DNA of 64,000 nucleotides from Candidatus Dadabacteria bacterium (GTDB lineage: Bacteria; Desulfobacterota_D; UBA1144; Nemesobacterales; Mycalebacteriaceae), in NCBI GenBank assembly GCA_026708565.1, contig JAPOUR010000059.1:24814-88813 (forward strand), given 5' to 3'. A program made the position numbers and the translations under genes. Shown piece by piece: positions 2,461-62,675 of the stretch. How positions within the stretch are numbered: position 1 is the stretch's first letter; every line of letters begins with the position of its first letter. The notes beneath the pieces are model-generated. The model made no database searches and was not told the origin of the DNA. It saw only the letters and a list, made by a program, of their open reading frames with translations.

Positions 2461-2688
2461 ATGGAAAAAGTAGAAAGTGCCGGTGTTCCTATGAAGACGA
2501 AAAGAGAAGCGGGCAAAGCCGATACAATGGAAGAGAAAAGGCAGGAACTGTTAGAAAACATGAGTCTGCAAATCTCTGATGAACTGAAGAACGCCATTGA
2601 TGTTTCTTACAAGTTGTCAAAGAAAAGAGCTCCAAATCCTTTTTTGTCGTTTTCCAGCAGTAGTGACCCAAATGGCGACACTTTCTGA
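2461..2688 (+). CDS. Small hypothetical protein (75 aa) immediately upstream of, and overlapping, the SDH-family protease gene
   Basis: ATG at 2461 is preceded by RBS GGAGG at 7-nt spacing. Lies in an AT-rich island. No recognisable motif. Confidence 0.35.
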   Translation: MEKVESAGVPMKTKREAGKADTMEEKRQELLENMSLQISDELKNAIDVSYKLSKKRAPNPFLSFSSSSDPNGDTF

Positions 2689-3599
2689 TATTCGCAACGA
2701 AGTTGGTAAAAGAAGCCTACCGGATGAGATAAGGCGCATTTATCTCAAGAAACTCGGTGAATACACCAAACGAGATACGGTTGTTTATGCTTCCAGTTTT
2801 TCCTCGCCAAATCCGAACATACCTAGTTCAGCATACTCTATTGAGTTGAATGACCTTCAAGCCTTTATGGCTGTTTTCCATGGCTTGAAGAGAAAAAACT
2901 TGGATATTATTTTGCACAGTCCGGGAGGTTCTTTGGAAGCCGCTGACCAAATAGTGCAATATATTAGGAGAAAGTATGACCACATAAGAGCAATTATTCC
3001 TCAAAACGCCATGTCTGCCGCCACTATGATAGCGTGTGCTGCCGATGAGATTATTATGGGTAAAGAGTCGGCGTTGGGGCCGACAGATCCTTTGCTCAAC
3101 GGAGCGTCAGCCCATGCGGTTTTAAGCGAATTCGCTCAAGCGAGGAGTGAAGTTATTAAAGATCCGAAAACTGCTCCAATATGGGTTTCAAGAATAGCAA
3201 ACTGGCCACCGGGTTTTTTTGGACAGTTGTCAGAAAGCATTGGATCTGTCTCAGGAGAAAGTTTTCGAATGGCTGTCAAACTATATGTTTAAGGGTGAAA
3301 ACAATGATAAGCCTCGGGAAATTGCAAAGTGGCTTGCTGATGCCAGACAGCATAAAACCCATGCACGCCCATTGGGTATTGACTTGCTTCAGGAGAAAGG
3401 GTTGAAGGTGATTCCACTGGAGGAAGATCAGGAATTCCAAGAAATCATTTTGTCTGTTTTTCACTCAACTATTGTCACCTTTGAATCAACCTCATGTATA
3501 AAACTTGTGGAAAACCATGAAGGAAAAGGGTCTTTCCTTCAGTTTCGACCGCAAATGCTTATTCCTCCGGTGCAAGGAAATACATCTACGGGCAAGTAG
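2672..3599 (+). pseudogene. SDH-family (Pfam SDH_sah-like), ClpP/crotonase-fold serine protease. The reading frame is split at a T7 homopolymer (3214-3220).
   Basis: ORF 2597-3292 carries 'DIILHSPGGSLEAADQIVQYIRRKYDHIRAIIPQNAMSAATMIACAADEIIMGKESALGPTDP', a ClpP-like catalytic-region signature. The overlapping ORF 3219-3599 (frame +1) encodes the expected C-terminal half, '...KVFEWLSNYMF...HARPLGIDLLQEKGLKVIPLEED...'. Deleting one T from the T7 run fuses the two into a ~309-aa protein. Confidence 0.6.
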
Positions 3600-3653
3600 A
3601 TATTATATCAGAGTGGTTTGAAGTTATTGGACGAAATTGAGCTGGGGTTCATC

Positions 3654-6600
3654 TTAAATTGGGACTATGTGTGAGAATCCGGTTTTCAGATTCCCGTTTT
3701 TGGAAATCAGTTGTTTGATTTTTCCCAGTCTTGATTTGCGTCTTTTCCACAGTTCTTTTTCATTTTCATTCTCTTGCAGATAAGCAATGAGCCCCACAAT
3801 AAGAGATGCCTGAATGTCCGCGTCTGAAATATGTCCGCAAAACGGACATGTGAAAACGGGTTGATTTCCCCGTTTTTCTTTGAATTCCCCGGCTTCCCTC
3901 CGGTTTTGAAATACGGGGTTCTTTCCCGCCAGATTTTCAACGGGCTGCCGTGAAAAGTTTTTTACGGCATTGATGGCTTCCCTTCCGGTCATCGTATTGC
4001 CGGATTGTTTTGAAATTCCGTTTATGTCGTGTTTTCCAATCTTGATTTTACAAAAGCCGTCTTTTTCGTATGTAACCGGAAAACTATCTTTTTCCCGTTC
4101 CCGCGTTATGTGCGCGTATATGCTTTCACCGCAGGAACTGCATATATTGCTTGTGGCGTATGCGTCAATCTCTTTTCCGGGGGCTTTGGCAGTTCCCCAT
4201 ACAAGTTTGCGCTCATCTTTGTCGGCTTTAATTTCCTGTCTTTTGTTGCGAATGTCGGCGCGTTTGACCGACTTGTAAACTTTGGAAACCTTTTTTGAAG
4301 AGTTATATGGTTCAAACGCGCTTGTCTGCTCTTCGTAAATCGTTGCCGCCTTGTAGCGCACGGCGATGTCGTGAATCCGGTTTCTCAAAGCGCCTATGGC
4401 GTTTTCCCTTATGTCGGCGAGTTTCGTGGAGGATTCTCTGAACATTCCGGTTCGTTGCCGCGTTTTCCCGTGTCTGATGGTTTCTCTTATCTTTCCGAGG
4501 GACGGGTGGGAGATAAAGCCCTGTTTTACAATTTTGAGTTTGGGTTTTGTCTCAAGAACAGTGTATCCGAGACCGTATTCCCCCGTGTCAATTCCGAGCA
4601 GCCGTTTGGGTTTTGTTTCCTCCCCGCCCGATATTTCAAAGGGAATGGAGACAAACACCCTTTCATCGGAAAACATCTTAAGCGAGGGCTTGAAGCCGTC
4701 CTCCGTCTTTTCCCATTCAACAGCCAGTTTTCTTTCGGCGATTAAAGAATGGTCGCCGGGCTTCATTGTGATGCCGCCTTTCGGGTTTACGGACTTTTCA
4801 AGAAACTGTGTCTGATATTTTGAAGATCTGATTGGAAAACTTATTGAATTCCCCTCCGCATCCTTTGTTTCTATAAACCATCTCTTTTTGTCGCCGTTGT
4901 GGATGAGGGGGAAACTTTTCTTCAGGTTTTCAAACTGAACGGTCGCCCGCACTATGTATTGTTCCTGTGTCATACGGCTCAGAGTTCCCCTTAATTCGGA
5001 GCAGATGATTGTGTTAATGAAAGTTCCCAACTGCCCGCCTTTCAACTTGCCGCCTTTTGCAAACGCTTTTATAAACGGCGCGGCTTTATAGAAGTCCTTT
5101 TTTATATGCGGGGGTATGGACGCGGAAATGTCGGGTTGAAGGTGTATAACACATGCGGCTCTTGCTTTTTCAACCTCAACCGCGTCAAGAAGTTCGTGTA
5201 TGGCGTTTTTGAAACCGCCTTTCATTTTGAATATGCCGTTCCAGTCGGGTTGCAGATTTTTAACAAGCCCCTCAATCAACGGGAGGGGGTTTTTCCCCTT
5301 GATGTTTGCGGAAAGGTCTTTGCCCGACCATCTTCGTTGCGAGTTCACGCCCTTTCCCCGGATGAAATAGTCTTTTTCGCCGCAGTCGTGCAGATCAATC
5401 TTTGCCGCTTTGAGAACCGCGTTTCTCACCACTCCGGCAAACCTTGCGGTGTTCATTGAGCCGTTTCTCAGGGTGGCGTCTTTTTCTTTCTGTTTGCCGT
5501 ATATTCTCTTGAGAGAGTTCAAACGCCCAAGCAGAAACTCTTCATCTTCCTGCGCGGGCTTGCGTCCGCCGCTTTCCGGGGTTTTCAGGGTTTCCGCCAG
5601 AAATTCAGTTCCGGCTTTTAGACGCTCCCATGAGTCCGCGTATTTTTTATACATTTCCTTTGCGGTTTCTCCGGGAAATGCCGGTATCTTGCGCAGGTCG
5701 GAGTGAATGCTCTTGTATGCGTGCGCCGCCGTTTCATACTTCGCTTTTTTATTGTTGGTGTCGCTTTCCTGATACCGGCGGTTCAGTTCGGAGCGGAATC
5801 TTCCCATCAGGTCGTCGTAGAAATTCAATTCCTCGTGAGGCGAGTCTTCCATTTTACCCCTCAACCCAACGGCAAGGTTTTCCAGTTTTTGAAGGTGTTC
5901 CATATACTCTTTGGACAGGGGAAACTCTCCCGCTTCAATGTCTTTTCTTATTTCCTTGAAATCCTCAATGTGTTTTTCAATCTGCTCTTCTATTTTTCCT
6001 TTCTGTGTTTCAATGTTTGACACATAAGATTTGATCTTGCCCATTTGAAGACGGTATATCCTCCATTCGGCAAGTTCGGGGCGGTCGGCAAGTTTTTTCG
6101 CGCATTGGGAGAGTTTATCCAGACGCTTCTCAAGTTCTTTTTCTTTACCTTTCCAAACGGGGGCGGCTTTGAGAATGTCCGCTTTAATTTCTCCGGTTTT
6201 CCCTTCGCGCAGCCTTTTGAGTTGCGCTCCGAGGTAGTTTGACTGGGAATTGTATTCGGAATCAAGACCCATGCGATCCTTGTATTTTTCTCCGAACATG
6301 TTTTGAATCGTATTCATCAGGTCTTTGATGTCGGCTTCCCGATTCGCCGGAATGTCGGGATGAGGGCAAAAAGTCAGATTTGTTTCCATATCTGTTTCGG
6401 ATAACAGGTTGCGATTGATGCCGTATTTTTTTAGCAGAATGTTATGTTTTTCTTCCTTGCCTTTTCCTATCAGGCTTTTTATTGTGAAACAAAACTCTTT
6501 TGCGTTGCCGTCTATGGTTTCTTCTTTTTCCAGTTTGAAAATCTCTTTCATTTCTGCTTCAACTTTACCTTTGGTCTTGTTGCTTCTGAATTCTCTTGGC

Positions 6601-7004
6601 AGGACGACATATCCCATGAGTTTGTCCCAATCTTTGACCAGATTGGAAAAATCAGGGTTTGTTTTTTGGACTTGCCTTTTAATGCTCTCTTTAATGTCAG
6701 GATTGAACCGGTCAATCAGTTCCGCGGCGTTTGGGAAGAAAACCACTCCCGCCCGCAGTGAATCACGCCAGAAATCAAAAAGCGAATAGGGATGTTTTTC
6801 CTTTTCCTTGTTTTTTATCCAGTCGTTTATGTTGAAGTCGCCGACAATCGCCTGATAATCGCTGAAAATATGGTCGGCGAGGTTTTTCAGATGTTTTTTG
6901 TTTTTGCAATCAATTGGGTATTTTACGGCGCGTGTCGCTTTTCCGCCGGAAAAATCTATCCGTTTGAGATGAAGACTGTATCCGGTGAGTCCTTTATATT
7001 TCAT
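3654..7004 (-). CDS. cas12: Type V CRISPR effector, Cas12 family (1116 aa). Subtype unassigned.
   Basis: - RuvC-I: 'RLLGIDTGEYGLGYTVLE' (Asp ~806, nt 4587-4589).
- RuvC-II: 'AVRYKAATIYEEQTSAF' (Glu ~891).
- Zn-finger: CxxC...CxxC ('CSSCGES' and 'CPFCGH'), inserted before RuvC-III.
- RuvC-III: 'SDADIQASLIVGLIAY' (Asp ~1061/1063, nt ~3816-3824).
- The gene sits immediately downstream of, and co-oriented with, a CRISPR array.
- It is AT-rich relative to its flanks. Confidence 0.85.
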   Translation of the reverse strand: MKYKGLTGYSLHLKRIDFSGGKATRAVKYPIDCKNKKHLKNLADHIFSDYQAIVGDFNINDWIKNKEKEKHPYSLFDFWRDSLRAGVVFFPNAAELIDRFNPDIKESIKRQVQKTNPDFSNLVKDWDKLMGYVVLPREFRSNKTKGKVEAEMKEIFKLEKEETIDGNAKEFCFTIKSLIGKGKEEKHNILLKKYGINRNLLSETDMETNLTFCPHPDIPANREADIKDLMNTIQNMFGEKYKDRMGLDSEYNSQSNYLGAQLKRLREGKTGEIKADILKAAPVWKGKEKELEKRLDKLSQCAKKLADRPELAEWRIYRLQMGKIKSYVSNIETQKGKIEEQIEKHIEDFKEIRKDIEAGEFPLSKEYMEHLQKLENLAVGLRGKMEDSPHEELNFYDDLMGRFRSELNRRYQESDTNNKKAKYETAAHAYKSIHSDLRKIPAFPGETAKEMYKKYADSWERLKAGTEFLAETLKTPESGGRKPAQEDEEFLLGRLNSLKRIYGKQKEKDATLRNGSMNTARFAGVVRNAVLKAAKIDLHDCGEKDYFIRGKGVNSQRRWSGKDLSANIKGKNPLPLIEGLVKNLQPDWNGIFKMKGGFKNAIHELLDAVEVEKARAACVIHLQPDISASIPPHIKKDFYKAAPFIKAFAKGGKLKGGQLGTFINTIICSELRGTLSRMTQEQYIVRATVQFENLKKSFPLIHNGDKKRWFIETKDAEGNSISFPIRSSKYQTQFLEKSVNPKGGITMKPGDHSLIAERKLAVEWEKTEDGFKPSLKMFSDERVFVSIPFEISGGEETKPKRLLGIDTGEYGLGYTVLETKPKLKIVKQGFISHPSLGKIRETIRHGKTRQRTGMFRESSTKLADIRENAIGALRNRIHDIAVRYKAATIYEEQTSAFEPYNSSKKVSKVYKSVKRADIRNKRQEIKADKDERKLVWGTAKAPGKEIDAYATSNICSSCGESIYAHITREREKDSFPVTYEKDGFCKIKIGKHDINGISKQSGNTMTGREAINAVKNFSRQPVENLAGKNPVFQNRREAGEFKEKRGNQPVFTCPFCGHISDADIQASLIVGLIAYLQENENEKELWKRRKSRLGKIKQLISKNGNLKTGFSHIVPI

Positions 7005-7094
7005 TATCCTGTCAGTTAATCAAAAAACGGGAAAAGAACAACCGGACGGGTTGAGGCAAAACAGAATCTATAAAGATTTCTGAGAAGAACCGTT

Positions 7095-7311
7095 AAAAGG
7101 GCATTGTCCAACGAGACGCAGGTCTTTCGCGTCCTGTGTTAGGTCTCACATCCCCCTTGTTTAAGGGTATCGTCCAACTTGCCTTCCACTCTTGAACCAT
7201 TCCGGGGCGCCTCACATCCCCCTTGTTTAAGGGTATCGTCCAACACTTGATGGCAGAAATAGAAGGCGACAACGGCCTCACATCCCCCTTGTTTAAGGGT
7301 ATCGTCCAACT
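7095..7311 (-). CRISPR. Minimal CRISPR array with three perfect 36-nt repeats plus one degenerate terminal repeat, and 30-31-nt spacers
   Basis: Repeat G[T/C]CTCACATCCCCCTTGTTTAAGGGTATCGTCCAAC is found at 7144-7179, 7210-7245 and 7276-7311 with a 66-nt period. A degenerate copy (…AAAAGGGCATTGTCCAAC) lies at ~7095-7112. The repeat contains the hairpin CCCTT-GTTT-AAGGG. Strand is inferred from the position of the degenerate (trailer) repeat next to cas12 and the AT-rich putative leader at 7312-7490. Confidence 0.8.
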
Positions 7312-7496
7312 GAAAGACCCGGAGACTTTCATCAACTCCTTATTGTTCAGGGGATTTTCCGGTTTTCTTTCCCGTTATTTGACTTTCAAAGAACAAAAAA
7401 GCGAAGATTTCATACCGTCCCCGCTCTTTATTCCGTAAAATAGTATGAAGTAAGCCCGCATTGTCAAGACACAAGCGCGGCTGAACGGACTTGTCA

Positions 7497-7910
7497 ATGA
7501 AAACCCTTGCTCTTGATGTCGGAACGAAAACCATCGGCGTTGCCGTGAGCGATGAACTGGGCATCACGGCAAACGGCCTTGGGGTTGTCCGGCGGACGGA
7601 TGAAAAAAACGACCTGCAATCCCTCGCGGCTTTGATAAACGAACACAAGCCGGGGCGCATTGTGGTCGGAATCCCGTTTAACGCGGACGGCTCTCTCGGA
7701 GAGCGGGCGAGGGCGATAAAAGACTTTTCCGAAACGGTTTCCCGGACTTTCGGAATAAAGACGGTTCTGTGGGATGAAAGTTTCTCCACCAAAGAGGCGG
7801 AAAAAGCGCTAATCGGCGGCGGAATGGGCAGAAAGAAAAGAAAAAAAGTTGTTGATAAGGTCGCCGCAACGGTCATACTGCGGGAATATCTGGACAGCGC
7901 GGAGGGATAA
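7497..7910 (+). CDS. ruvX: Holliday-junction resolvase-like / pre-16S rRNA nuclease YqgF (RuvX)
   Basis: 'MKTLALDVGTKTIGVAVSD' is the N-terminal RuvX signature. Length is ~138 aa. Confidence 0.85.
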   Translation: MKTLALDVGTKTIGVAVSDELGITANGLGVVRRTDEKNDLQSLAALINEHKPGRIVVGIPFNADGSLGERARAIKDFSETVSRTFGIKTVLWDESFSTKEAEKALIGGGMGRKKRKKVVDKVAATVILREYLDSAEG

Positions 7911-7911
7911 T

Positions 7912-8703
7912 ATGCCGATTGCCAAAGTGAACGGGGTGAACATTAACTACGAGGAACACGGCTCTGGAAAGCCGGTTTTCCTCATCGGAGGGCTCGGAAG
8001 CACAATATCAAGCTGGGACGACCAAATACCGGTTTACTCAAAACACTTCAAAGTCATAGTGTTTGACAACAGAGGGTCGGGCCTCTCAAGCAAACCGACC
8101 GCCCCGTATTCCACACGGGACATGGCGGACGACACAGTCGCCCTTGCCGATTTTCTGGGGATTGAAAAGGCGTCTTTTGCGGGCAAGTCCATGGGCGGAA
8201 TGATAGCGCAGTGGATAGGCATCAACCATCCCGAAAGAGTCCGGCGGCTGGTTATGGGCTGCTCAACCGCCCACAGGGACGAGGTCGGAAACCTGATACT
8301 TGAAACGGGCAGGCAAATATCCGAAAAGGCGGGCATGGGGCCCGTGTGGCTCACCGCGCTTTTCCTCGGCTACGGCAGGCAATACATTGAAGACAATCTC
8401 ACCGCCATCAAAGAGCGCCTCGCCGGTGTGCAAACCACACCCGAAGACATTGCGGGATACCACGGCCAGTGCGCGGCGTGCGAAGGGCATGAAACCGCCG
8501 GGCTTCTTCCACGTATTAAGTCGCCCTCTCTTGTTATGTTCGGGACGGAAGACAACGTTACCGACCCGAAGCGGGCGGCGGAGGTGGGGGAACTCATACC
8601 GGACGCGACCGTCCGCGCGTTTGAAGGCTGCGGGCACGGATTCTGGCGCGAAAAAAGAGAGGAAGTGGACGCCCTTGTGGTTGACTTTCTCTCAAGCGGG
8701 TAG
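7912..8703 (+). CDS. Alpha/beta-fold hydrolase
   Basis: 'VFLIGGLGSTISSW', nucleophile elbow 'GKSMGG', and a C-terminal 'GCGHGFW'. Confidence 0.8.
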   Translation: MPIAKVNGVNINYEEHGSGKPVFLIGGLGSTISSWDDQIPVYSKHFKVIVFDNRGSGLSSKPTAPYSTRDMADDTVALADFLGIEKASFAGKSMGGMIAQWIGINHPERVRRLVMGCSTAHRDEVGNLILETGRQISEKAGMGPVWLTALFLGYGRQYIEDNLTAIKERLAGVQTTPEDIAGYHGQCAACEGHETAGLLPRIKSPSLVMFGTEDNVTDPKRAAEVGELIPDATVRAFEGCGHGFWREKREEVDALVVDFLSSG

Positions 8704-45933: not shown

Positions 45934-46869
45934 ATGAGTTATGAAGCGGAACAACTTCAAAGATACAATATGCCTTCTCGGAAGGATATGGAAGAATCTT
46001 TGCTCAAAGCGATTTTCAACAATAACGGAGTTATAAGAGAATTCGGTTCAAGGGAGAGTGTAGTTGAAGAACTTGCTGATGAGTTTCATTTGAGCAAAGA
46101 GCAAAGAACCGCTTTTCTGGAAACAGTTTACAGAAAGGAAAACAGGGTGAAAAAACCAAATCTTTGGCACCGACTGTTATTTCGGGTAGCTAATAACTTG
46201 GCGGAGAGAAAATTTTTGTCCAGACCTACTCAGACTTTGAAGCTAACCAATAAAAAAGAATGGATGCTCACAGAGAAAGGTTTTGATAAGGTATTGAAAG
46301 TAATGGGAATGTCGGTCGAACATAAAGAAGACCTTCTTGTTAAATCTTTTGAAGTTGAAACATTTGCCAGAAAGTTAAAGAAAAAGAGCAAACCTACAAA
46401 CTACAATCCTATAGGTGGAAAAAAGGAAGCGAAACAGTCACAAAGACTTATGAAAATAAGAAACAGAGGATTTAGACAGGCTGTTATTGAAGCATACGAC
46501 TATAAGTGTGCTGTTTGCGGTTTGAAAATTTGTTCTCCAGCAAGCCACCAATGGGAAGTGGAAGCCGCCCATATAGTTCCTCATGGTTTTAATGGAAAAG
46601 ATGACATCTGGAATGGTTTGTCTCTTTGCCGTTTTCATCATTGGTCTTTTGATGTTGGTTGGTACAGTTTTGATGAAAAATTTAATTTGGTTGTCTCTGG
46701 CAAGCTGGGAGATCTTCCCGATGATATGGGAAAGATTTGGAATTACGGGTTGTTAAAACAACTCTCAGCAAATAAAGATGGTGTGCAGCTTCCAAGGCAA
46801 TCGAAGTTGTGGCCGGATTTGAATGCGGTCAAGTGGCATAGGGAAAATGTTTTTGGAGGGTGTGGTTAG
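45934..46869 (+). CDS. HNH_2-type nuclease with an N-terminal non-catalytic domain (restriction-like). The gene is AT-rich.
   Basis: 'YDYKCAVCGL…EAAHIVPHGFNGKDDIWNGLSLCRFHHWSFD' is the His-Asn-His ββα-Me signature with a flanking CxxC…C/H zinc site. Confidence 0.75.
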   Translation: MSYEAEQLQRYNMPSRKDMEESLLKAIFNNNGVIREFGSRESVVEELADEFHLSKEQRTAFLETVYRKENRVKKPNLWHRLLFRVANNLAERKFLSRPTQTLKLTNKKEWMLTEKGFDKVLKVMGMSVEHKEDLLVKSFEVETFARKLKKKSKPTNYNPIGGKKEAKQSQRLMKIRNRGFRQAVIEAYDYKCAVCGLKICSPASHQWEVEAAHIVPHGFNGKDDIWNGLSLCRFHHWSFDVGWYSFDEKFNLVVSGKLGDLPDDMGKIWNYGLLKQLSANKDGVQLPRQSKLWPDLNAVKWHRENVFGGCG

Positions 46870-46916
46870 AATGAAAGCACATACAAATTTCATCAGTCAA
46901 GGGATGGGTTCAGATT

Positions 46917-47111
46917 ATGGTCAAACGACAGAGAAGTGAAAAAAGAATCATCTATTCCATCAATGTGGAAGATATTCAGACTGTTGCGGACGAAGTTTTG
47001 AAAAGGCCGTTAACAGAAGCAGAAATTGCGAAAATAGAGGACGCTGTTGGAGAAAACGTCTCTTGGTTTGATGCAATTGAACAGGCTATGATTGATAACA
47101 AATTAGTTTGA
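46917..47111 (+). CDS. Small hypothetical protein (64 aa) downstream of the HNH nuclease
   Basis: RBS AAGGGA is 8 nt upstream of ATG. The gene is AT-rich and has the same orientation as the HNH gene. No recognisable motif. Confidence 0.4.
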   Translation: MVKRQRSEKRIIYSINVEDIQTVADEVLKRPLTEAEIAKIEDAVGENVSWFDAIEQAMIDNKLV

Positions 47112-47338
47112 TTGATGCCCTGCTTCCGCTTATTTCTTTCCCTCAAACGCCGCTTCTTCCCGTATGGTACTCCCCCGACCGGTTCTCCCAAGTAAAGCGT
47201 CTCTCCCTTCTCAACCGCCACACACTCGCCGAGTCCAGCGTGTTTCTCAAACTCGCTATCATCCTCGCAGAAATAAACCTTCCTTCAACTGTGGCAACAT
47301 CGTAAAATAGTCTTGACCATTTTACGACATTGCTTAAA

Positions 47339-48553
47339 ATGGTCAGGGTGAAACGGAGTTACCAAGCAATCATCGCGGATCATTTCGCCCGCCACCGGCA
47401 GATGGCATTCATCACCGGCCCCCGGCAGGTGGGCAAGACCACCCTGTCCATGTCCATCGGGAAACAGACAGACACCCGCTATCTTAACTGGGATGACCCG
47501 GAAGACAGAGACCTGCTGCTGACCGGGTCGGCCTCTATGGCGGAACACCTTGCTCTGGATAAAGCCCGCGCAAAGCCGCTTACTGTCATCTTTGATGAAA
47601 TTCACAAATACTCCGGGTGGAAGCAGTTTGTTAAGGGGTTCTATGACCGCTATAAAGACCGCTGCAACATCATCGTAACCGGCAGCGCGCGTATGGACAG
47701 CTTCAGAAAAGGCGGAGACAGCCTTATGGGGCGGTATTTCAACTACCGCCTTCATCCGCTTTCAGTCGCGGAATTGCTGAACGGGCCGTCGCCGGAAAAT
47801 GAATACGGCCCGCAAAGGAAACTGAGCGGCAAACAGTTTCAGGCATTGCTGCAATGGGGCGGGTTTCCGGACCCTTTCATAAAGAGGGACCAACGGTTCT
47901 ACAACCGCTGGAGCCGGTTGCGTGAGCAACAACTCATCCGCGAGGATATCCGCGAGATGACACGGGTGCAGGAACTGGACCAGCTGGAGATGCTCGCGCT
48001 GTTGCTCAAAAACCAAGCCGGTCAACTGACCGGCTACACAAGCCTTGCGAAGAAAATCCGCGTGTCGGTTGACACCATACGCCGCTGGGTGCTTGTGCTG
48101 GAATCTCTTTATTACTGCTTTACGGTGCGACCATGGAGCAGGAACATAACGCGCTCCATATTGAAAGAGCCCAAATACTTTTTGTGGGATTGGTCACAAT
48201 GTGATGACGAGGGCGCTCTGTGCGAAAACTTCATCGCCTCCCACTTGCTCAAAGCCGCGCATTTCTGGACTGACACCGGGCTCGGTAATTACGACCTGTA
48301 TTATGTGCGCGACAAGGAAAAACGGGAGGTTGATTTTCTGGTTACGAAAAACCGCAAGCCGTGGATGCTGGTGGAGGCGAAAAAATCCTCCGGCGCGGCT
48401 CTGTCCCCCGGTCTCAGACACTTCAGCAAGGCGTTAAATGTCTCCCACGCATTTCAGGCGGTGGTTGACGATGACTATGAGGATGTGGATGTCTTTTCCT
48501 GCAAGACTCCCGTGATTGTTCCGGCGGGGACTTTACTGTCGCAACTTTGTTGA
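47339..48553 (+). CDS. AAA+ ATPase with a C-terminal DUF4143 restriction-endonuclease-like domain (COG1373)
   Basis: Walker A 'ITGPRQVGKTTL' and Walker B 'VIFDEIH'. The C-terminal region 'YDLYYVRDKEKREVDFLV' is typical of DUF4143. Confidence 0.8.
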   Translation: MVRVKRSYQAIIADHFARHRQMAFITGPRQVGKTTLSMSIGKQTDTRYLNWDDPEDRDLLLTGSASMAEHLALDKARAKPLTVIFDEIHKYSGWKQFVKGFYDRYKDRCNIIVTGSARMDSFRKGGDSLMGRYFNYRLHPLSVAELLNGPSPENEYGPQRKLSGKQFQALLQWGGFPDPFIKRDQRFYNRWSRLREQQLIREDIREMTRVQELDQLEMLALLLKNQAGQLTGYTSLAKKIRVSVDTIRRWVLVLESLYYCFTVRPWSRNITRSILKEPKYFLWDWSQCDDEGALCENFIASHLLKAAHFWTDTGLGNYDLYYVRDKEKREVDFLVTKNRKPWMLVEAKKSSGAALSPGLRHFSKALNVSHAFQAVVDDDYEDVDVFSCKTPVIVPAGTLLSQLC

Positions 48554-59375: not shown

Positions 59376-60329
59376 TCAATTAAACAGGGGGCTTATGGAC
59401 TCCCCTTTTGCCACTCTGCGGATGGACTCTCCTATCAGGTCCGCCATGCACAGGACGGTCAGTTTATCACATTTTTTCATTTTTTCTTCCTGCGGGATGG
59501 TATTTGTTACAATCACCTCGTCAAGCGCCGATGAGTTGATTCTGTCAATGGCCGGTCCCGACAGTATGCCGTGCGTGCAGCACAGGGAGACGCTCAGCGC
59601 CCCCTCGTTCATAAGGATTTCAGCCGCCTGAGTGGCCGTTCCGGCGGTGTCAACCATGTCGTCAACGATTATGACGTGCCTGTCTTTCACTTCGCCGATA
59701 ATGTAGTCCACATCCGCCACATTGGGCGCGGTGCGCCGTTTTGTGGTCATTGCGATATCCAGGCGCATTCTGTCCGCATAAAAGCGCGCTCTTTCCATTC
59801 CGCCCGCGTCCGGCGAGACCACCACGGCGTTTTTTCCCTCAAACCTTCCGTTCAGGTAGTTGATAATCACCGGGGAGGCGTAGAGGTGGTCAACCGGAAC
59901 ATCAAAGAAGCCCTGTATCTGTCCGGCGTGAAGGTCTATGGTCATCACCCGCCTCACTCCCGCGTTGACGACCGTGTCGGCTATCAGTTTGGCGGAGATG
60001 GGCCCGCGCGGTTTCACCTTTCTGTCCTGCCGGGAGTATCCGTAGTAGGGCATCACGGCGGTTATGGAGGCGGCGGAGGCGCGTTTGAGGGCGTCCGTTA
60101 TTATCAGCAGTTCCATAAGGTTCTCGTTGACGGGCGGGCATGTGGACTGCACCACAAACACGTCCGCCCCGCGCACGCTTTCCACAATCTCGGCGTAGAT
60201 TTCGCCGTCGCTGAACCGGTGAATGTTGATTTCCCCCGGTTTCACGCCAATCTTTTCGCAGATTGACTCAAAAAGCGGGGTGTTGGAGTTGCCGCTGAAA
60301 ACCTTTATCTCTTCGTTAGAACCGGACAT
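59376..60329 (-). CDS. prs: Ribose-phosphate pyrophosphokinase
   Basis: 'KVFSGNSNTPLFESICEKIGV', 'DLHAGQIQGFFDVPVDHL', and 'VDDMVDTAGT'. Confidence 0.95.
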   Translation of the reverse strand: MSGSNEEIKVFSGNSNTPLFESICEKIGVKPGEINIHRFSDGEIYAEIVESVRGADVFVVQSTCPPVNENLMELLIITDALKRASAASITAVMPYYGYSRQDRKVKPRGPISAKLIADTVVNAGVRRVMTIDLHAGQIQGFFDVPVDHLYASPVIINYLNGRFEGKNAVVVSPDAGGMERARFYADRMRLDIAMTTKRRTAPNVADVDYIIGEVKDRHVIIVDDMVDTAGTATQAAEILMNEGALSVSLCCTHGILSGPAIDRINSSALDEVIVTNTIPQEEKMKKCDKLTVLCMADLIGESIRRVAKGESISPLFN

Positions 60330-60439
60330 TGCAATCCCGTAAAGCCCGCTTTGTGGGCGGGGGCTTTAAGTATAGGGGGAAGGGGGGATTATGCAAGAGG
60401 GACGCTACAGATTATAATATGGGAAACGGAGGAGTTGAG

Positions 60440-61444
60440 ATGAGTGATAAACTTGCTGAGATTGTTGATGAAATAAACAAGAAGATAGACAAATATGAGA
60501 TAGGGGGTTTCCACGCTTGGCGCAAAAGACAGAACCCAAAACTTGTGGGCGGTAAATTTCTTATGCCGAGTAATGGTAAGACTTGGACGGCGCACCGGGG
60601 TGGGAGGTTGGAATTACAATATAATGTTGGAATACGGAAAGACGAAAATGAGTTCCGCTATGGAGTGGCGTTTTCTTTCAGAAAGTCTAAAACTTATCAG
60701 TTTCAGGACCTTAGAAAGCATTTAGAGCCTAAAGTTCAAAAATTTAATCAGTATGTCAGTTCTCACCCTGACCTTCTTGAAGAAATGGTTTGTTTTCGAT
60801 ATGATGAGGCGAAAGGAAAACGTTTTTTACTGAAAGACTCTATTCCGAATAATCTGGTCAAAGAAGGAGTTTTCATCTTTTTCGGAAAAACTTGCAAAGT
60901 TAATGAGAGAAATTATGACGAAATTTTGAGAACTTTTGACCGCCTTTTTCCGCTTTACAAAGTCTGTGGAGCCAAAATGCCACTTGTTGAGGGCGAGGAT
61001 AATAAGAGGGAAGGTGTTTCTTCTAACCCCGGATTTAACCCGACATCTCGGTCAACAGAAAGAACAATTCAAGAAAGGACAATTCAGACTGAAGAAAGGC
61101 ATGACAAGATTAAAGACCTCCTGTATAAAAAGAAAGTAAGAGAACACGGTAAGCAAAATGTGGATACGGAGTGGCGTACGGATAATGGTCAAAGTGTTGA
61201 TTTAGTGGTTCTACAAGGTTCCAAACGCTGGTTTTATGAGATAAAAGTGCAAGATAATGACCGCCTATGTATCCGCGAAGCCATGGGGCAACTGCTTGAA
61301 TATTCATACTGGCCGGGTTGTGAAGTGGCGGAGCGTCTCATAGTCGTGGGAGAACCAAAACTTACAAAAAAGGGCGAGGCATACTTGAAAACACTACGGG
61401 AGAAATTCAACATTCCCGTATTCTACGAACAAATCACTTTATAG
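60440..61444 (+). CDS. Hypothetical protein (334 aa) with a C-terminal PD-(D/E)xK-like restriction-endonuclease-fold motif. The gene is AT-rich.
   Basis: RBS GGAGG is 7 nt upstream of ATG 60440. The C-terminal 'SVDLVVLQGSKRWFYEIKV' matches a D…(E/D)xK core. The N-terminal ~220 aa has no recognisable family. Confidence 0.5.
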   Translation: MSDKLAEIVDEINKKIDKYEIGGFHAWRKRQNPKLVGGKFLMPSNGKTWTAHRGGRLELQYNVGIRKDENEFRYGVAFSFRKSKTYQFQDLRKHLEPKVQKFNQYVSSHPDLLEEMVCFRYDEAKGKRFLLKDSIPNNLVKEGVFIFFGKTCKVNERNYDEILRTFDRLFPLYKVCGAKMPLVEGEDNKREGVSSNPGFNPTSRSTERTIQERTIQTEERHDKIKDLLYKKKVREHGKQNVDTEWRTDNGQSVDLVVLQGSKRWFYEIKVQDNDRLCIREAMGQLLEYSYWPGCEVAERLIVVGEPKLTKKGEAYLKTLREKFNIPVFYEQITL

Positions 61445-61490
61445 GTCGTATATGTCATTTTCAGTTGCTGGACACCTTGCCTATGCTTCG

Positions 61491-62675
61491 TTACAAATAA
61501 GACCTTGCTTTCGGAAGCAGGTCAAACTTTTCCTTAAACTCTTTCTCGCTCATCTTTTCCGCCCATAAAAGATTTATACTCATTTCATTTGTCGCTTCAT
61601 CAACTTTCACCGCTTCCAGATCAAGCAGTTTTTTGAAATCCCTTTGTATGGCATTGTCAAGTTTCTTCAGTCCCGAATACAAAGACCTGCTCACCGCCTC
61701 TTTTGCAAAATCTTCCGCCGGAAGAGAGCCCTTTTCAAGCAGTATGTTCAAAAGACGCATCTGCCTCTCCGCAATCACCCGTTTCCTCGGACTCTCAAGC
61801 TTGCCGAACAACTCATGCATCCGCTCGCGGAAAAGCGACTTGCGGAGATGAAGGGCTATCTCCCCGGCGGCCCTTTTGCAGAGGGTCTTTATTCCCCTCA
61901 ACCCGAATTTCACAAAGTCCGTCAGGTCTCCGTGTTTTCCGGCGGTTTCGCTTAAAACCTTCAAATACTCGGCATTGTTTTCATAGTAAAAATTGGAAAC
62001 CGGTATGAAAATCTCTTCCTGCAACCCCGCCTTGCGGAGCATAAACGCCTCCGCCGCCCTTGCGGTTCTGCCGTTTCCGTCAAGAAAAGGGTGAATTGCC
62101 GCAAGATGGTAATGAACGGCAAGGGACTGAATCAGCGGGTCATGGCTTCCGAATTCCCTTGACGCCGCCCTTACAAGTTCCTCAAGCGCCTCCCCGCACT
62201 CATTTCCGCCCTCCGCGCCCCGATGCTGCGGCAAGCCGAAAATCACATTCTGCCCGCTTCTCCGCAACGCGCCCGGCTCGCAATGGTCATCATCGCAACC
62301 CCTGACAATCCGCCTGTGAATCTCTTTTATCAAATCGCCGCCAAACGGATAGCCGGACGGCAACGCGGTAAGCCACCTGTAGGTTTGCTCCGCCGCTCTT
62401 GCCTGCCGCTGGGAATGGGTCAGCCCGTATTCGGCGGAGGTTTCCCTGAGCGCCTCGTCAAGTTCGTCTTCGGTGAACTCCGCGCCCTCTATGCGCGATG
62501 TTCCCGCCGCTTCGCGCCTTAACTGCTCCGCTTTCCACCGCTCCGTGTAGTCGCGTGTGCGGGGCAGAAGTTTCAAGGTTTCAACCGCCGCCTTCGCCTC
62601 GGCAAGAGGGGTCGCAACCTCCTTGAAGTCGTAACTGATCCAATCTGCGGGTTTTCCGTATTTTATGACGCTCAT
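61491..62675 (-). CDS. fic: Fic-family protein (class II, with an N-terminal inhibitory helix)
   Basis: Canonical FIC motif 'HPFLDGNGRTARAAE'. Inhibitory motif (S/T)xxxE(G/N) at 'TSRIEGAEFT' lies upstream of the Fic core. Confidence 0.9.
   Translation of the reverse strand: MSVIKYGKPADWISYDFKEVATPLAEAKAAVETLKLLPRTRDYTERWKAEQLRREAAGTSRIEGAEFTEDELDEALRETSAEYGLTHSQRQARAAEQTYRWLTALPSGYPFGGDLIKEIHRRIVRGCDDDHCEPGALRRSGQNVIFGLPQHRGAEGGNECGEALEELVRAASREFGSHDPLIQSLAVHYHLAAIHPFLDGNGRTARAAEAFMLRKAGLQEEIFIPVSNFYYENNAEYLKVLSETAGKHGDLTDFVKFGLRGIKTLCKRAAGEIALHLRKSLFRERMHELFGKLESPRKRVIAERQMRLLNILLEKGSLPAEDFAKEAVSRSLYSGLKKLDNAIQRDFKKLLDLEAVKVDEATNEMSINLLWAEKMSEKEFKEKFDLLPKARSYL

Follow-up and report, generated by a model that had tools for sequence, protein, structure and literature searches.

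The window analysed here, a 64-kb (64,000-nt) stretch of DNA from Candidatus Dadabacteria bacterium, carries on its minus strand a compact CRISPR locus consisting of an AT-rich leader with a sigma-70-like promoter (7311-7467), a three-spacer array (7097-7310), a candidate scoutRNA core (7046-7093), and a cas12d (CasY) gene encoding 1116 aa (3654-7004). The initial annotation had placed the array next to a cas12 gene, and this neighbour was identified more specifically as cas12d of subtype V-D. The 1116-aa ORF matched the NCBIfam equivalog NF033951 (Cas12d/CasY) with 1001.6 bits at a cutoff of 250; the second NCBIfam match, the Cas12c model, was weak (63 bits vs a cutoff of 250). Pfam detected a Cas12f1-like TNB zinc-ribbon domain in the protein, and an identical NCBI protein, MCY4047870.1, is named 'type V CRISPR-associated protein Cas12d [Candidatus Dadabacteria bacterium]'. 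The RuvC residues D806, E891 and D1063 are present and are invariant in alignments with other Cas12d proteins, so the catalytic triad is intact. An exhaustive HMMER search returned 245 clusters at 50% identity, in which the protein's own cluster, P0002, shows 90% identity and the best matches outside it about 33%; identity to any other Cas12d cluster is only about 25-37%. No solved Cas12d structure was found, and the nearest PDB chain by sequence was Cas12c2 (7v93, E = 1.6e-4). Dadabacteria, a class of Thermodesulfobacteriota, do not belong to the CPR lineages.

The GC content of the cas12d region is 44-47%, compared with 55-65% in its flanks. Both flanks carry housekeeping genes: on one side are ruvX, a gene for a hydrolase and cobalamin genes, on the other genes for an SDH/NfeD-type protease and a DUF924 protein. 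The serine protease gene beside cas12d is split by a T7 homopolymer (3214-3220, plus strand) into two ORFs (2597-3292 and 3219-3599). The same gene in the orthologous locus L001 has T6 and is intact (308 aa), and T7 recurs in L002, another assembly of the window strain; the split reflects either a frameshift that has made the gene a pseudogene or an assembly error in the homopolymer. Elsewhere in the window, two islands have a GC content of about 45-46%, compared with 55.6% for the window as a whole. One (45934-48553) encodes an HNH_2 endonuclease and an AAA_14/DUF4143 ATPase, and the other (60329-62675) an unannotated 371-aa ORF and a Fic/DOC protein; both may be mobile or defence-related insertions.

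The repeat unit, GCCTCACATCCCCCTTGTTTAAGGGTATCGTCCAAC on the plus strand, is 36 nt long and recurs at a period of exactly 66 nt, separated by 30-nt spacers that are each unique within the window. Read on the minus strand, the array starts with the leader-proximal repeat R1 (7275-7310), followed by spacer S1 (CGTTGTCGCCTTCTATTTCTGCCATCAAGT, 7245-7274), repeat R2 (GTTGGACGATACCCTTAAACAAGGGGGATGTGAGGC, 7209-7244), spacer S2 (GCCCCGGAATGGTTCAAGAGTGGAAGGCAA, 7179-7208), repeat R3 (7143-7178), and spacer S3 (CTAACACAGGACGCGAAAGACCTGCGTCTC, 7113-7142) at the trailer end. In the 36-mer search, R1 and R2 were exact copies, and R3, the cas12d-proximal copy, had one mismatch to GCCTCACATCCCCCTTGTTTAAGGGTATCGTCCAAC (GTCTCAC on the plus strand). 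The initial annotation had reported three identical repeats ending at 7311; the repeat length, the strict period and the unique 30-nt spacers stand, but only two of the repeats are identical, the third differing by a single mismatch, and the array ends 1 nt lower, at 7310. The mismatch in R3 falls within the 5-nt anchor at the 3′ end of the repeat (GAGAC for GAGGC), and the same variant is present in L002 and L003, two assemblies of this strain described below; the S3 crRNA, carrying this mismatched anchor, may be impaired. Spacer S3, the oldest, is also internally self-complementary (GACGC-N10-GCGTC) and lies downstream of the repeat with the anchor mutation.

The cas12d-proximal end had been described as carrying a fourth, degenerate copy of the repeat. 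This copy is real, in phase and on the trailer side, but it comprises only the 5′ 16 nt of the repeat on the transcribed strand (GTTGGACAATGCCCTT at 7112-7097, 14/16 identical; 5 matches vs 0.37 expected), and the remainder of its 36-nt slot (7096-7077) bears no relation to the repeat. The terminal half-repeat, which is conserved in the orthologous loci L001 and L067, has neither the 3′ hairpin arm nor the anchor and runs directly into the scoutRNA-like element. The full repeat contains the 5-bp hairpin CCCTT-GTTT-AAGGG (CCCUU-AAAC-AAGGG on the minus strand), in accordance with the hairpin and the minus-strand reading given previously. Further copies of the 36-mer at up to 3 mismatches numbered 0 in the 64-kb window and 0 in 100 shuffles, and the repeat core was not found in IMG/VR. 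An Rfam scan of positions 3000-8000 (E up to 10) yielded sub-threshold noise only, with no CRISPR-DR or tracr family.

The feature conforms to the generic description of a CRISPR array, at least three near-identical direct repeats of 23-47 nt with unique spacers of similar length, and its spacer content differs between strains. Two contigs from other samples, L002 (ENA k141_25646) and L003 (Logan SRR10996909), align with the window over 8-17 kb at 99.7-100% identity. The window carries S1-S2-S3, L002 carries S1-S3, and L003 carries S3 only; S3 is therefore common to all three assemblies, S1 is shared by the window and L002, and S2 is found in the window only. In the more distant L001 and L067 (Cas12d 89% identical, DNA 92% identical), a different 30-nt spacer precedes the same half-repeat, and the contigs break inside a repeat. 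The array thus turns over, and the combination of constant repeats and flanks with differing spacers identifies it as a CRISPR array, as initially annotated, rather than a REP-like element or a coding repeat. A non-CRISPR origin, whether as a REP/MITE-like intergenic repeat, short and tandem or dispersed, or as part of an 80-aa ORF (7093-7335, minus strand), is exceedingly improbable: the copy number of only three, and the ORF running through repeats whose 66-nt period is divisible by 3, would fit such a reading, but the 30-mers are mutually unrelated and differ between strains, no other copies exist in the 64 kb or in IMG/VR, an intact cas12d adjoins immediately on the same strand, and the 3′ half of the repeat resembles canonical V-D repeats. 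The 80-aa ORF itself was rejected as a by-product of the 66-nt period.

For comparison, 60 further Cas12d loci were collected from GTDB genomes and JGI metagenomes, and 40 arrays were found in them. The repeat lies on the cas12d strand in 40 of these 40 Cas12d-linked arrays, and the consensus repeat has AAGGC at its 3′ end in 36, the other four being reported truncated at that end. On the cas12d strand, the window repeat has GAGGC at its 3′ end; over the final 25 nt (CCCUUAAACAAGGGGGAUGUGAGGC) it is similar to a canonical hairpin-type repeat, e.g. CUCCGAAAGUAUCGGGGAUAAAGGC. The only sigma-70-like site in 6900-7600, revealed by a promoter scan, is on the minus strand (7467-7440; −35 TTGACA at 7467-7462, 16-nt spacer, −10 TACTAT at 7445-7440; score 10/12) and is directed from the distal side into the array. 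The common strand of the comparison arrays and the direction of this promoter-like site agree with the minus-strand transcription toward cas12 proposed in the initial annotation. Its placement of the leader at the distal AT-rich side, with the trailer next to cas12d, likewise agrees with the low GC content of the leader (41-43%, with 43% in 7311-7490, vs 55.6% for the window) and with the related loci that have the array upstream of cas12d, where the terminal repeat also lacks part of its 3′ side. A 6-bp inverted repeat, TGAAAG-N9-CTTTCA (7311-7331), abuts the leader-proximal repeat and could be a leader motif for integration or processing.

The dimensions of the array set it apart from its relatives. 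The 40 comparison arrays have repeats of 25-26 nt where these are fully resolved and a dominant period of 42-46 nt, equivalent to spacers of 17-19 nt, in agreement with the published spacer length of type V-D (17-19 nt). Only the window combines a 36-nt repeat with 30-nt spacers, and it thus lies outside the V-D lengths in both respects. The extra 11 nt of its repeat (GUUGGACGAUA) are located at the 5′ end; the anchor at the other end shares with V-D the cas12d strand and the final ...GGC, reading GAGGC (GAGAC in R3) and not AAGGC. The array is also small, with three spacers compared with up to 51 in related loci.

A V-D cas1 gene was present next to cas12d at 40 of the 67 loci fetched, and the others are mostly short contigs. 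In the 64-kb window, cas1 gave no tblastn match at E ≤ 1e-3, and an HMM built from 20 V-D Cas1 sequences gave a best E of 4.4. The Cas1 mini-integrase that acts without Cas2 is described, in the part of PMC8390960 that cites Wright 2019, as measuring protospacers of about 18 bp. As a mini-integrase of this kind takes about 18 bp, the absence of cas1 and the presence of 30-nt spacers are coherent with each other. Most likely, the 30-nt spacers were integrated by a different Cas1-Cas2 acting in trans, as judged from the 64-kb window.

Alternatively, the array may be a genuine V-D array that has become a relic: cas1 was lost, no new spacers are added, the variants with one to three spacers arose by repeat-repeat deletion, and Cas12d operates on a few fixed spacers or is idle or repurposed. 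Such a relic would explain why no cas1 occurs within 64 kb, why only three spacers are present, why the trailer repeat has an anchor mutation, and why no protospacers were found in IMG/VR, INPHARED or PLSDB. The S1-S3 variant without the middle spacer also fits deletion and not ordered addition; deletion alone can explain it, and acquisition may have ceased. We nevertheless regard the relic as doubtful, as cas12d is intact, with 100% identity between samples and 89% protein identity to the ortholog, its substitutions are concentrated at third codon positions, and the trailer-end spacers of the two lineages are wholly different. Moreover, the 36/30 architecture is unlike that of every relative, which indicates that the array was rebuilt by some integrase and not simply inherited from a 25/18 ancestor. 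The locus is very probably a genuine, minimal array in a Dadabacteria chromosome, belonging to an atypical variant of type V-D.

Between the array and cas12d lies a 48-nt element (7046-7093, minus strand) whose position and layout are those of KbCas12d scoutRNA1. In 5′ to 3′ order, it comprises ACGGUU (7093-7088), a CUUCU linker, a CAGAAAUCU-UUAU-AGAUUCUG hairpin (7082-7062), UUUU, a GCCUC dock (7057-7053) and AACCCGU (7052-7046), in which ACGGUU and AACCCGU would form an outer stem. The dock together with the A at 7052 is the exact complement of the repeat end (U)GAGGC, so that the pairing reaches 6 bp, and this GCCTC(A) (7057-7052) is located 53 nt upstream of the cas12d ATG. Each of the 28 comparison loci examined has a sense-strand GCCTT, the complement of AAGGC, no more than 160 nt upstream of cas12d. 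In the loci closest to the window, which have the array upstream and hairpin-type repeats, the order is an outer stem, a UUUCC-like linker, a hairpin, 2-4 nt, GCCUU and the 3′ strand of the outer stem; counterparts with the same layout were found in 10 related loci between the truncated terminal repeat and cas12d, and the copy in L025 has the same sequence as the 44-nt 'scoutRNA1' with which KbCas12d/CasY.1 cleaved best in vitro. As the GAGGC of the window repeat is matched by GCCUC in the dock, both sides have changed together relative to AAGGC/GCCUU.

The region also showed constraint. In the 92 nt preceding the ATG, 2 substitutions separate the window from the 92%-identical ortholog, one in the hairpin loop and one in the linker, against a divergence of 11% at third codon positions and 23% in the intergenic region downstream of cas12d (P about 0.002 for the 92-nt region). 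Judged from this sequence divergence, the 92-nt region is under purifying selection. A terminator scan identified a terminator-like hairpin, CAACC-CGUCC-GGUUG (7053-7039), with a U-rich tail (7022-7053, minus strand), and CGUCC (7048-7044) could alternatively pair with nt 25-29 of the repeat (GGAUG), giving an interrupted duplex of 6 + 5 bp in the cofold of crRNA and scoutRNA. Since the docks of ten class-B scoutRNAs were out of register when aligned with MAFFT, a structural descriptor was used in place of a covariance model; it matches the candidate site, although it is loose and passes 12% of the GCCTC sites in the window. The fold of the scout region was no better than that of shuffled sequences (z = −0.64), the minimum free energy fold closes with GGU:GCC and not with the proposed bulged outer stem, and in local alignments the primary sequence of the region was not significantly similar to those of related scout regions (z ≤ 2.5).

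The weak fold score, the lack of primary-sequence similarity and the looseness of the descriptor would also fit a locus without a scoutRNA, in which the conserved 92 nt are the 5′ UTR or a regulatory region of cas12d and the crRNA acts alone with the repeat hairpin as its handle, as in Cas12a. Consistent with this, a 108-nt stretch has a chance of about 10% of containing GCCTC, and the repeat, extended by 11 nt, has a hairpin of its own. Such an arrangement seems unlikely, however, in view of the dock-anchor complementarity upstream of cas12d in every comparison locus examined, here with both sides changed and 6 bp long, and of the match in layout and position to the validated KbCas12d scoutRNA1. 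In addition, reviews of published work give a scoutRNA with short complementarity as required for Cas12d activity. The element at 7046-7093 is therefore best described as a probable scoutRNA on the basis of its sequence and layout.

Another candidate, a plus-strand anti-repeat in the protease gene (3286-3315), was rejected because its GCCTC is not conserved in the ortholog and its segments are in non-duplex order; its 11-nt exact complement of repeat nt 11-21 (TGTTTAAGGGT), located 14 nt before GCCTC, was judged to be chance. Other arrangements were observed among the comparison loci. Where the array is downstream of cas1 (L004, L008, L011, L031 and others), the conserved 5′ element of the scoutRNA (GGGTTCCTAACCC) complements the centre of the repeat (GTTAGGAAC) over 10-12 bp, and the two sides covary: the L031 repeat GGGTTAGTAACC is accompanied by the scout sequence GGTTACTAACCC, and L008 has the pair GGTTAGGGAC and GTCCCTAACC. 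This covariation suggests that a second, longer crRNA-scoutRNA duplex is formed beyond the 5-nt dock in those loci. The class that includes the window has the repeat's own hairpin instead of this longer duplex. In L027, the last repeat and the sequence that follows it lie upstream of cas12d (about 2176-2211), and the following sequence is a perfect 12-nt anti-repeat (GCCTTTATCCCC vs GGGGATAAAGGC) that folds with the final repeat into a long hairpin. A hairpin-plus-outer-stem layout was not found in this element, which looks tracrRNA-like or terminator-like.

The spacers gave no indication of their targets. The initial annotation had raised the possibility of self-targeting or a chromosomal origin, but no self-target was found outside the arrays when the window, L001 and L002 were searched with up to 7 mismatches allowed over 30 nt and up to 2 over the initial 18 nt. 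The search of viral and plasmid databases that it had suggested likewise produced no protospacer: the four spacers had no match in IMG/VR (24-mers) and no significant match in INPHARED or PLSDB. These collections probably contain no Dadabacteria viruses, and the missing protospacers are thus weak evidence. The two bases 5′ of each spacer are GC or AC, whereas the reported PAM of Cas12d is 5′-TR (TA/TG), which is consistent with self-avoidance.

From these features, the following course of events can be proposed. The leader promoter would drive a minus-strand transcript through the leader, R1-S1-R2-S2-R3-S3, the half-repeat, the scoutRNA and cas12d. The handle of each crRNA would be the 3′ part of the upstream repeat, i.e. 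the CCCUU/AAGGG hairpin and the anchor UGAGGC, and the anchor would pair with the dock GCCUCA, possibly together with GGAUG with CGUCC. The complex of Cas12d, crRNA and scoutRNA would then recognise complementary DNA beside a 5′-TR PAM and cleave it with the RuvC domain, the PAM being proposed by analogy with other Cas12d proteins. New spacers would be supplied by a different Cas1-Cas2 integrase encoded elsewhere or, alternatively, acquisition would have stopped.

Type V-D (Cas12d/CasY; e.g. CasY.1 = KbCas12d) was described by Burstein 2017 and Harrington 2020, as outlined in PMC7889808 and bioRxiv 10.1101/2023.12.12.571249. The window shares with this type an effector of the same family with the RuvC triad, an array upstream of cas12d and co-oriented with it, a repeat with an internal hairpin and a 3′ ...GGC anchor, a terminal repeat truncated on the 3′ side, and a compact candidate scoutRNA between the array and cas12d that combines an outer stem, a pyrimidine linker, a hairpin and a 5-nt dock. 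It differs in the length of its repeats (36 vs 25-26 nt) and spacers (30 vs 17-19 nt), in the anchor/dock pair (GAGGC/GCCUC vs AAGGC/GCCUU), in having no adjacent cas1, and in its host, which belongs to Candidatus Dadabacteria (Thermodesulfobacteriota) and not to CPR/Patescibacteria. The repeats of L017/L025, L015 and L046 are presumably exactly those of CasY.1, CasY.2 and CasY.4, respectively.

One exception within the family may be comparable. CasY.5, reportedly among the loci of Burstein et al. in 2017, is said to be the one CasY locus without Cas1, to have spacers of 27-29 nt and a 36-nt repeat, and to have a repeat ending in AAAGAC. The window resembles CasY.5, so described, in the absence of Cas1, the longer spacers and the 36-nt repeat, but its repeat ends in GAGGC and the nearest protein cluster is only about 33% identical, so the two would at best be distant relatives; a CasY.5-like architecture was not found among the 60 related loci. 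If this precedent holds, the locus is less distinct from known V-D systems.

Resemblances to two further types were noted. Type V-C (Cas12c) provides the nearest solved structure (7v93) and the second NCBIfam match, and its crRNA-scoutRNA pairing combines a 3-5-nt dock with additional short duplexes (PMC9522604). The possible GGAUG/CGUCC pairing in the window is reminiscent of these additional duplexes; unlike the window, however, V-C arrays have short spacers and a cas1 (Cas1-only mini-integrase), and the Cas12c model scored only 63 bits against a cutoff of 250. The arrays of type V-A (Cas12a) have 36-nt repeats, spacers of about 30 nt and a repeat hairpin that serves as a 5′ handle, as the window does. 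Cas12a needs no second RNA. In the window, the effector is not Cas12a, and beyond the hairpin the repeat continues for 11 nt up to an anchor matching a separate RNA. The initial annotation, in likening the hairpin to those of Cas12 crRNA handles, pointed to this kind of array; in V-D, 36-nt repeats and 30-nt spacers are atypical.

The differences from type V-D can be brought together in one scenario, which we put forward as a tentative possibility. The lineage would have swapped its adaptation partner: the V-D Cas1 was lost, the repeat was extended by 11 nt at its 5′ end, 30-nt spacers came to be supplied in trans by the Cas1-Cas2 integrase of a different CRISPR type that the genome also encodes, and the anchor and dock co-evolved from AAGGC/GCCUU to GAGGC/GCCUC.

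Part of this picture is already known: NCBI lists the protein as Cas12d, and CasY.5, a similar exception, may date from 2017. The NCBI name and the possible CasY.5 precedent make the advance incremental, not fundamental. Type V-D has been described as a CPR-bacterial system with 17-19-nt spacers, Cas1-only adaptation and a scoutRNA with a conserved 5-nt dock. The present locus keeps the logic of effector and scoutRNA, and breaks the rules of host phylum, repeat and spacer length, and cas1. The compensatory change of dock and anchor provides natural covariation evidence for their pairing, and the locus offers a test of whether that pairing is programmable or orthogonal, as well as of whether it is the integrase, and not the effector, that sets the spacer length in V-D. 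It also provides a compact 1116-aa Cas12d that may accept longer guides. If the adaptation partner was indeed swapped, the locus would represent a natural long-guide Cas12d with a naturally orthogonal anchor-dock pair.
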